Source of the DNA: Alphaproteobacteria bacterium
GTDB taxonomy: Bacteria; Pseudomonadota; Alphaproteobacteria; GCA-2731375
Reading direction: 5' to 3'
Length of the DNA: 64,000 nucleotides
Assembly (NCBI GenBank): GCA_965232515.1
Contig: CBDDPY010000002.1
Coordinates: forward strand, 256,001 to 320,000
Within the stretch, counting starts at the first letter, position 1; every line of letters begins with the position of its first letter. The notes under the pieces are model-generated. The model saw only the letters and a program-made list of their open reading frames with translations. It did not search any database and was not told the origin of the DNA. A program made the translations under genes and the position numbers. Shown piece by piece: positions 34,141 to 55,826 of the stretch.

Positions 34141-34245
34141 ATGCTTCGAGACGCGGCTTCGCCGCTCCTCAGCATAAGGCAGGGCACCGATATCAAATGC
34201 GACCCTCATCCTGAGGAGCGCCCGTCAGGGCGCGTCTCGAAGGAT
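34141..34245. repeat. REP-like inverted doublet, family B (intact copy)
   Basis: ATGCTTCGAGACGC-hairpin-GCTCCTCAGCATAAGG ... CCTCATCCTGAGGAGC-hairpin-GCGTCTCGAAGGAT; between convergent genes. Confidence 0.85.
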
Positions 34246-54511: not shown

Positions 54512-54570
54512 GGCGGTCCCTCACGCGTCGTCATGCTTCGAGACGGGTCCTTCGGACCCTCCTCAGGATG

Positions 54571-55745
54571 GAGACCTTTGCACGGTTTTGGGAAGCGTGA
54601 TTCACTGACGGTATAGGGGCTGTCGGTGAGGGTTTGAGATGTCTCGCAAGCGTGTTGGTCAGCTGGGGTTTGAGGACGCGGTTGTCGAGGCGCGGCTTGG
54701 CGCTCGGTTCGATCGGCTGTCGAAGATCAATGATCTTGTGGACTGGCGGCCGTTTGAGGCGCTGCTGGAGGGGCTTTATCCGTCGCGTCGGGGCGAGCCG
54801 TCTTATCCGGCGCTGATCATGTTCAAGGTGCTGCTGTTGCAGCGCTGGTACAATCTGTCGGATCCGATGATGGAGGAGGCGTTGGCGGACCGGATCTCGT
54901 TCCGTCGGTTTGTCGGTCTGAGCCTGAGCGATCCGGTTCCCGATCACTCGACGATCCACCGTTTCCGGGACCGTCTACGCGGGGCGGCGCGTCTTGAGGC
55001 GCTGATGGGGGAGTTGTCGCGTCAGCTCGAAGCGCACCAGGTCGTGCTCAAACAAGGCACGTTGATTGATGCCAGCCTGGTGAGCAGCGCGGCGCGGCGG
55101 CCTCGGATCAAGGAAGGCCGGACCAGCCGGACCGATCCGGATGCGCGCTTTGGCACCAACAACGAGCGCCGGCGCTATAGCTTTGGCTACAAGCTGCATG
55201 TGGCCGTGGATCAGGGCTCGGCGCTGATCCGCGGCCTGTTTCTGACGCCGGTCAATCGCCAGGAGATCGACTTTGCCGCCGATTTGGTTCAGGGCGACGA
55301 GCAGGCCGTCTATGCCGACCGTGGTTATGACGCCCGGCGCCTGCGCGATCATCTGGCGGCGCTCGGCATCGCCGACGGGGTCATGCGCCATGCCCGTAAA
55401 GGCAGGCCGCTCAACGCCGAAGAGACCGCCCGGAACCACCGGCTGGTGGCCCGGCGCCGACCGGTCGAGAAGATCTTCGGCACCCTCAAACGAAGCTACC
55501 GCCTCAGCCGCCTGCCGCATTTCAGCCAAGCACGCAACGAAGTCACCGTCACGCTCGCCTGTTTCGCCTACAACCTGCGACGCCTCGCCGTCCTCTGCGC
55601 AACTTGAGGCCGCTCGATATCGACCTCATCGACAGCAAACAGGCCTCAAGCCGGTCAGCGGCTCGAAAACAGGCGCGATCGCCGCTAACAACCCAGCGCC
55701 AAGCTCGAACATAGCGACAAACAACACCTACCGTGCAAAGGTCTC
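54571..55745 (+). mobile_element. IS5-family insertion sequence (about 1.18 kb)
   Basis: Perfect 16-bp TIRs GAGACCTTTGCACGGT / ACCGTGCAAAGGTCTC (extendable by TG/CA to 18 bp) flanking one transposase ORF. Confidence 0.93.
54639..55607 (+). CDS. IS5 family DDE transposase (DUF772 + DDE_Tnp_1)
   Basis: LLLQRWYNLSD, SFRRFVGL, PDHSTI.RFR, IDAS, FGYKLHV, YADRGY, R..VEKIFG.LKR, AYNL. Confidence 0.95.
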   Translation: MSRKRVGQLGFEDAVVEARLGARFDRLSKINDLVDWRPFEALLEGLYPSRRGEPSYPALIMFKVLLLQRWYNLSDPMMEEALADRISFRRFVGLSLSDPVPDHSTIHRFRDRLRGAARLEALMGELSRQLEAHQVVLKQGTLIDASLVSSAARRPRIKEGRTSRTDPDARFGTNNERRRYSFGYKLHVAVDQGSALIRGLFLTPVNRQEIDFAADLVQGDEQAVYADRGYDARRLRDHLAALGIADGVMRHARKGRPLNAEETARNHRLVARRRPVEKIFGTLKRSYRLSRLPHFSQARNEVTVTLACFAYNLRRLAVLCAT

Positions 55746-55826
55746 CAGCATGAGGCTAGAGAGCACATTGTACGGCCTCACCCTGAGGAGAAGCCGAAGG
55801 CTTCGTCTCGAAGGGTGGAAACGGTG

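Follow-up and report, generated by a model that had tools for sequence, protein, structure and literature searches.

The window analyzed here is a 64,000-bp stretch of an alphaproteobacterial genome (GenBank assembly GCA_965232515.1, contig CBDDPY010000002.1, positions 256,001 to 320,000; 7.39 Mb in 4 contigs, hereafter G000). At 54533..55816 of the window, an insertion sequence (IS) of the IS5 family interrupts a palindromic intergenic repeat, hereafter family B. A first-pass annotation had placed an IS5-family element on the symmetry axis of the repeat, and the sequence reads as described. This report concerns the choice of insertion site by this IS.

Structure of the interrupted repeat

The features of the locus, together with an empty repeat used for comparison, are as follows.

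54533..54570, + strand: left arm piece of the interrupted family-B repeat (CTTCGAGAC, variable hairpin, CTCCTCA-GGA-TG), among the 109 arms of a regular-expression census
54564..54570, + strand: left heptamer CAGGATG, core triplet GGA at 54566-54568 (junction comparison)
54571..55745, + strand: IS5-family insertion sequence, 1175 bp, one of 8 genomic copies (full-length matches 99.9-100%)
54571..54586, + strand: left terminal inverted repeat GAGACCTTTGCACGGT; the 8 copies account for all 16 exact ends in the genome, with no solo ends
54639..55607, + strand: transposase gene, 322 aa, DUF772 and DDE_Tnp_1 (open reading frame and profile matches)
55730..55745, - strand: right terminal inverted repeat (end comparison with the left repeat)
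55746..55752, + strand: right heptamer CAGCATG, core triplet GCA at 55748-55750 (junction comparison)
55746..55816, + strand: right repeat piece, comprising the TGAGG remainder of the core, a spacer of ~24 bp and an intact inverted partner arm (alignment)
55776-55812 (G000:C2:311776-311812), minus strand: partner arm, exact-pattern match (pattern search)
34141..34245, + strand: empty family-B repeat, left core degenerate (CCTCAGCATAAGG) (alignment and folding)

The inverted repeat of the IS was perfect over 16 bp, or over 18 bp when the adjoining TG/CA was counted. The junctions read ...CTTCGAGAC-GGGTCCTTCGGACCC-TCCTCAGGATG / GAGACCTTTGCACGGT ... ACCGTGCAAAGGTCTC / CAGCATGAGG..., with CTTCGAGAC-hairpin-CTCCTCAGGATG as the left flank and CAGCATGAGG-spacer-inverted arm as the right flank. 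The transposase matched PF05598 (DUF772; 89.2 bits), PF01609 (DDE_Tnp_1; 83.9 bits, cut-off 23), the latter over profile positions 6-200 of 200, and the NCBIfam model NF033581 transpos_IS5_4 ('IS5 family transposase'; 245.4 bits against a cut-off of 140). In the profile search it fell below the cut-offs of all models of other IS families. The element has the marks of the IS5 group in that DDE_Tnp_1 and the curated IS5 model were above cut-off, and in its length (~1-1.5 kb), single open reading frame and short terminal inverted repeats. It resembles IS5 of Escherichia coli in size (~1.2 kb), in a single frame of ~320 aa, in inverted repeats of ~16 bp and in the combination of DUF772 and DDE_Tnp_1. 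It differs in the target duplication, which here lies at a 13-bp palindrome and is read as 3, 5 or 7 bp, not as the 4 bp of the IS5 group. IS5 itself duplicates 4 bp at YTAR-like sites, other IS5-family groups duplicate 2 to 9 bp, and the IS1031 group has a 3-bp TNA duplication.

Deletion of the IS and one heptamer restored a repeat of 102 bp that was collinear with the empty repeat at 34141-34245, as the first-pass annotation had stated (79/110 columns identical; score 111 against 34.1 +/- 6.6, maximum 57, in 500 shuffles). The two heptamers it had reported were likewise found, differing in the centre base. Its three readings of the duplication (7, 5 or 3 bp) were confirmed, since CA/TG can be assigned to the stem of the palindrome or else to the tips of the IS.

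Placement of the eight copies and the target repeat

Eight full-length copies of the IS were found in the genome, seven of them mutually identical, and the window copy differed from these by 1 base. This base, at window position 55252, was T in the window copy and C in the other seven as well as in the IS unitigs of the sequencing runs X18, X19 and X20 (X20 is another sample of the same coded organism). Neither solo IS ends nor miniature derivatives were found in the genome, where end matches with 2-3 mismatches were unrelated. The family-B arms did not qualify as miniature inverted-repeat transposable elements of this IS, the arm end having only GAGAC in common with the IS tip.

All eight copies were located at the axis of CCTCA-GNR-TGAGG within a family-B arm, always at the same base, with flanks of the form ..CCTCAG-xx-TG / IS / CAG-yy-TGAGG... 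A tabulation of flanks had been proposed in the first-pass annotation, and its outcome for the genome was 8/8 copies in CCTCA-N3-TGAGG of family-B arms. The orientation was also the same in 8/8 copies, with the arm hairpin upstream of the transposase and the spacer and partner arm downstream (two-sided P = 0.0078). For a single random insertion, the chance of falling on any of the 109 axes with a given orientation is 7.4e-6, and the placement of the copies is far beyond chance. The centre triplets (left/right) were GGA/GGA in three copies, GCG/GCG in one, GCA/GCA in one and GGA/GCA in three. The triplet was thus a perfect direct repeat in five of the eight copies, and since these five matched pairs are of three kinds, duplication of the target covers at least the triplet.

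Family-B arms were counted with the pattern TTCGAGAC, variable hairpin, CCTCA-NNN-TGAGG, with one substitution allowed per conserved block. The genome contained 109 arms, 101 empty and 8 occupied. The exact pattern occurred 77 times and its reversed control 0 times. Intact convergent pairs, a count that leaves out occupied arms, numbered 43, of which 26 had the modal gap of 24 bp. The loops of the empty arms were GCA (28), GGA (28), GGG (22), GCG (8), ACA (6), GGC (5), GCC (2) and others (2). The two bases 5' of the core were kept as CT while the bases 3' of it were variable, and the site is therefore asymmetric despite its palindromic core. Among the arms there were 82 distinct hairpin sequences, 16 of which occurred more than once. 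As a single strand, the whole repeat folded into one long hairpin (-30.1 kcal/mol, z = -5.06).

With 109 arms, 43 convergent pairs, a modal 24-bp spacer and a long hairpin, the repeat has the shape of repetitive extragenic palindromic (REP) sequences and of their hairpin-forming doublets (REPINs), which are short, GC-rich, imperfect palindromes found between genes in many copies and frequently paired in inverted orientation. The description 'REP-like' in the first-pass annotation holds for shape; it does not extend to an association with REP-associated tyrosine transposases (RAYTs). Two homologues of Y1_Tnp (PF01797) were detected, at G000:C2:3708196-3708483 (- strand, 45.5 bits) and 5932606-5932827 (+ strand, 28.9 bits), and no family-B arm or core was found within 3 kb of either, so that a RAYT link was rejected. 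Family B is REPIN-like in shape only.

The arms flanking the IS copies differed strongly from one another while the IS copies were near-identical (0-1 base), which points to recent insertions into older repeats. This contrast also bears on a different reading, in which the arm pieces belong to the mobile unit, as extended ends or as part of a composite element, and the insertion into a repeat is only apparent. The GAGAC common to the outer end of the arm (TTCGAGAC) and the IS tip (GGAGACC) fits such a unit, as do copies 1 and 8, which have an identical 41-bp left arm found nowhere else in the genome. The sequencing depth of X18 agrees with these two copies having the same arm: the left-junction unitig had a depth of 160, twice that of its flank (83), against 542 for the IS unitig and 62-83 for the flanking unitigs. 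Against a mobile arm stand the strongly different arms of the other copies around an identical IS, the 101 arms without IS in this genome and the 10-83 arms in other genomes without it, and the pairs GCG/GCG and GCA/GCA, which are site-specific duplications. Repeated hairpins are moreover common (16 sequences), and by a hand estimate the chance of one matching pair among 8 arms is ~0.2. The arm common to copies 1 and 8 was accordingly rejected as proof of co-mobilisation, identical hairpins being frequent and a chance match plausible. The mobile-arm reading is already largely refuted, and we regard it as very improbable.

The ratio of IS depth to flank depth was ~7-8 fold in X18 and X19 and only ~2.6 fold in X20, which hints that the IS copy number differs between isolates. 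A contig of X20 tracked the left flank of the window copy to 54565 (after CCTCA) and then departed from the window sequence; among the joins listed for X20, none crossed the IS, and X24 yielded no contig over the locus.

Judged by GC skew, occupied arms showed no strand bias by replication direction (5 leading/3 lagging, against 50/51 for empty arms), and targeting of single-stranded or lagging-strand DNA was rejected on this ground. The cumulative GC skew of contig C2 had its minimum at ~5.79 Mb and its maximum at ~1.37 Mb, giving unequal replichores of ~2.9 and 4.4 Mb. Contigs C3 (5,516 bp) and C4 (10,862 bp) had a GC content of 45.8% and 42.3%, against 65.5% for the chromosome, and could be contaminants or small foreign replicons.

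Relatives of the element and the choice of target

Family-B arms without the IS numbered 64 in G001 (same genus), 83 in G002 (a different genus) and 10 each in G032 and G040, which belong to other families; none were found in 36 further relatives. A DNA search for the IS in 40 relatives returned nothing beyond weak, partial similarity (69% over 146 bp at best), and a protein search at E <= 1e-60 found none in 32 other genomes of the order. Since arms occur in genomes without the IS, the repeat is older and more widespread than the element, which looks like a recent arrival that multiplied. The intergenic repeats also turn over quickly within the genus, as the corresponding spacers of G001 differ. 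The orthologous spacer of the genes next to the window IS (L106, G001:C183) is 156 bp long, lacks family B and holds another small palindrome, GGATCCTGGC-CTGC-GCCAGGATGACC, and at the copy-8 locus the two flanking genes of G001 directly abut.

In species-representative genomes, the closest transposase had 51% identity (14 loci), and plasmid-borne IS5-family elements were 34-44% identical (best 43.6%). Closer relatives came from metagenomes. The clusters listed by a protein search included 120 at 60-100% identity; almost all of them came from contigs of ~1.2 kb, and their names went no further than 'IS5 family transposase'. A contig scan yielded 39 loci, 7 of them at 62-82% identity, and 6/7 carried a flank of at least 10 nt on one or both sides. 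The flanks of close homologues, which the first-pass annotation had also proposed to tabulate, read CTCA-N3-TG / IS / CA-N3-TGAG in 6/6 of these contigs. The closest of them (L066, 82%) interrupts an arm resembling family B, oriented as in G000, and L072 has the same arm-relative orientation and, like L067, a CTCA-N3-TGAG core. L069 and L071 (62-65%) lie in another long palindrome, CTTCGACAAGCTCA-N3-TGAGCTTGTCGAAG, and L070 lies in CTCTCA-ACA-TGAGGG. The flanks of L068, of only 2 and 5 nt, are consistent with CTCA-N3-TGAG.

Relatives at 46-48% identity were located in other small palindromes (L086, L089, L090 and seven full copies in G041, a Dehalococcoidia metagenome-assembled genome, MAG). 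The target in G041 is an 18-bp hairpin, TTCCCGC-CTNC-GCGGGAA, with the IS in the loop, and 28 empty copies were present. The flanks carry inverted, not direct, copies of the loop (GNAGG / IS / CCTNC), and no direct repeat of any length was derivable from them. Left flanks were common to several copies (L039 = L041; L042 and L045 likewise). These observations concern the G041 loci L039-L045 (IS at 1501-2697 of each) and L051-L065. A palindromic motif, CCTTCGACAAGCTCAGGGTGAG, was observed in these distant organisms (G041 loci L040, L053, L055 and L059; metagenome contigs L069 and L071); it resembles the family-B arm (CCTTCGAGAC..CTCCTCAGGATGAGG), with the CTCA-N3-TGAG core used by the IS clade in common. 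No palindrome was found at the sites of a sub-group at ~50% identity with GAGAGC ends, nor at those of L026 and L027 (43-45%), whose duplications were 4 bp (AAAT) and 5 bp (AGGAG), respectively. Target choice follows the protein lineage, which supports specificity of the transposase and counts against recombination via the repeat.

Such recombination would mean that the IS was spread by homologous recombination or gene conversion through repeat homology ('homing') and not by target choice of the transposase. Flanking homology is indeed common to all targets, and the left triplet is GGA in 6/8 copies against 28/101 empty arms (P = 0.0074), as if copied from another locus. Unbroken identity between arms is short, however, at ~8-15 bp around the variable hairpins, and triplets of three kinds occur as duplications on both sides of the IS. 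In other organisms, relatives at 62-66% identity are inserted at this core within unrelated repeats, which points to the protein. Homing is therefore considered unlikely by a wide margin, though slightly less so than a mobile arm.

The reading that we favour, with a probability of about 0.88, is that of an active, recently expanded IS5-family element whose DDE transposase inserts with specific site and orientation on the axis of the 13-bp sequence CCTCA-GNR-TGAGG, a sequence present in every arm of an inverted-pair repeat that is abundant between genes. A dimer of the transposase, bound to both IS ends, would read the two TGAG half-sites of the duplex palindrome and join the 3' ends of the IS to the two strands at points separated by 3 bp spanning the axis, or by 5 or 7 bp should CA/TG lie outside the IS tips. 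Orientation may be set by the asymmetry of the site, namely the purine-rich GNR loop and the conserved CT upstream. Because the palindrome is located in intergenic repeats, insertions would rarely hit genes. The 'safe harbour' role proposed for the repeat in the first-pass annotation would accord with the insertion position.

Several points weigh against site- and orientation-specific insertion as described. It is deduced wholly from the end states of transposition. The metagenome contig L067 has the opposite orientation relative to the arm, so that orientation is not clade-wide, and metagenome contigs through a repeated IS can be chimeric. Three of the eight duplications are imperfect, an outcome not expected from a plain staggered cut. 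The genome holds 86 perfect cores, mostly inside arms, so that recognition may involve the 13-bp core alone or more of the arm. The mini-palindrome hairpin alone is marginal (-1.1 kcal/mol for the degenerate empty copy), and when the whole repeat is folded, the left CTCCTCAG is instead paired to the partner arm. Recognition of structure as opposed to sequence is unsupported on these two grounds, and with the mini-palindrome marginal by itself we speak of a palindrome axis and claim no extruded hairpin.

Known repeat-targeting elements and the mosaic triplets

Insertion at repeat axes is already known for IS3, IS4, IS110, IS256 and IS481 elements. The survey of Tobes and Pareja (2006; PMC1525189) describes REP targeting in five IS families and, in the parts considered here, gives as strict 'type 1' cases ISPsy8 (IS3), ISPa11, ISPpu9, ISPpu10 and ISRm19 (IS110) and ISRm22 (IS4). 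The present IS shows an association of type 1, with 8/8 copies in a reconstructable repeat. Novelty lies in the IS family and the repeat family; the principle of axis insertion had been published in that survey, for a transposase of the same Pfam type.

Among the elements described there, ISRm22 of Sinorhizobium meliloti is similar to the present IS in having Pfam Transposase_11 (PF01609), all copies in a repeat (10/10 in REP), insertion at the axis of palindromy and imperfect direct repeats in about a third of cases (3/9, attributed by the authors to recombination; PMC1525189). It belongs to another IS family (IS4 subgroup IS4Sa, according to the part of PMC2266710 considered), has a 6-bp repeat and uses another repeat family, a comparison made by description only. 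For ISPsy8, the survey text reports that the REP is always broken at one point, with 3 bases duplicated at the symmetry axis of the predicted hairpin (PMC1525189). IS621, ISPpu9, ISPpu10 and ISPa11 of the IS110 family are described there as having all copies at one REP position (PMC1525189); they have a DEDD recombinase with bridge/seek RNA and lack such terminal inverted repeats, and by this description their mechanism is unrelated. An IS481 element occupies one REP position in Pseudomonas fluorescens SBW25, as stated in the available part of PMC11708052. The only IS5-family entry in the survey, as far as its consulted parts go, is ISNm1106, with a loose 'type 2' association (4/7 and 7/14 copies; PMC1525189). 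ISNm1106 and IS1106 of Neisseria are, like the present IS, IS5-family elements tied to REP-type repeats; as described, they lie near the repeats and are not flanked by a broken repeat. ISPsy8, IS1397 and ISKpn1 (IS3 family) share the targeting of REP sequences by their descriptions, and differ in having two frameshifted open reading frames and an rve-type transposase. Full-text literature searches, which did not cover ISfinder, returned neither a strict repeat-targeting IS5-family element nor this repeat family. ISPsy8, IS1397 and ISKpn1 transpose by a copy-out-paste-in route.

The mismatch between left and right triplets, seen by the first-pass annotation at the window copy, was not a one-off: it occurred in 3/8 copies (window copy, copy 6 and copy 8), always as left GGA and right GCA. 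For the window copy, Logan unitigs/contigs of X18 and X19 matched both junctions without differences, and an assembly or polishing error at this copy was rejected on that basis. A crossover between IS copies was rejected as the cause because the outer flanks of each of the three mosaic loci are adjacent in G001. The repeat itself is absent from G001 at all three sites, so that the triplet before insertion is unreadable from that genome. The excess of GGA noted above is confined to the left side; on the right, GGA was found in 3/8 copies (P = 0.39). The left triplet therefore behaves as if linked to the IS, and the recurrent GGA-left/GCA-right flanks most likely reflect a left triplet that travels with the IS, by a step that is hypothetical.

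Two routes for this step were weighed. Non-crossover gene conversion between IS copies, extending a few bases into the arm and involving no donor strand, would explain the mosaic triplets. The seven identical copies fit ongoing homogenisation, copies 1 and 8 have the whole left arm in common, and Tobes and Pareja invoked recombination for the three imperfect repeats of ISRm22, in the account given in PMC1525189. Conversion gives no reason for a mismatch on the same side in 3/3 copies, although a 3:0 split has P = 0.25; crossover is excluded at all three loci, their outer flanks being neighbours in G001, and at copy 6 the tract must stop within 7 bases of the triplet. We hold gene conversion to be a serious candidate, with odds somewhat short of even.

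The other route, which we rate as possible but more doubtful than gene conversion, is a carry-over of donor strands, in which the mosaic flanks would be the natural footprint left by a bacterial IS5-family element that moves by seamless cut-and-paste in the manner of piggyBac or PIF/Harbinger. On excision, the 5' ends of the IS would retain a single strand from each of the two flanking triplets. These donor strands would fill the 3-nt gaps at the next palindrome, so that each triplet would start as a donor/target heteroduplex, and after replication one side could retain the donor triplet and the other the target triplet. The footprint would be visible only because the middle base of the target is polymorphic, and precise excision restoring the repeat is also predicted. 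This scheme is an extrapolation from models of mPing and piggyBac. For mPing, the portion of PMC4561436 considered describes staggered cleavage of the duplications with 3-base 5' overhangs, which allows precise repair, and a 3-bp duplication with a free middle base, as here; piggyBac is described, in the source as far as consulted, as excising seamlessly at TTAA. PIF/Pong/Harbinger and piggyBac differ from the present IS in being eukaryotic and in using short AT-rich targets, against the 13-bp palindrome.

The points that fit a carry-over are the excess of left GGA, the exclusion of crossover at three loci and the flank frames of the 48% relative in G041. With the frame set by the AGA..TGAC context found in 11/15 empty hairpins, the left flank is improper and the right flank proper in L039 and L041, and the reverse holds for L043. 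Each of these three informative copies thus has one fitting and one ill-fitting flank, the latter being the flank common to most copies, in a MAG that may be misassembled and in which the outer contexts of L040 conflict.

The principle of repeat-axis insertion being known, what is new are the IS family, the repeat family, the compact CTCA-N3-TGAG core common to a metagenome-wide clade, the orientation, which is strict among the copies of this genome, and the mosaic flanks with their one-sided pattern. The IS5 family joins the insertion sequences that home strictly to intergenic palindromic repeats, with a compact 13-bp target defined, and a DDE transposase of this specificity is a good subject for the study of how target DNA is read. 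The element also provides an example of a newcomer that multiplied eightfold in a genome without hitting genes. PIF/Harbinger elements are akin to IS5, and the transposition chemistry of the IS5 family has, to our knowledge, been little studied. If donor strands are indeed carried over, the mosaic flanks would provide a test of that chemistry and a link to the eukaryotic PIF/Harbinger elements.

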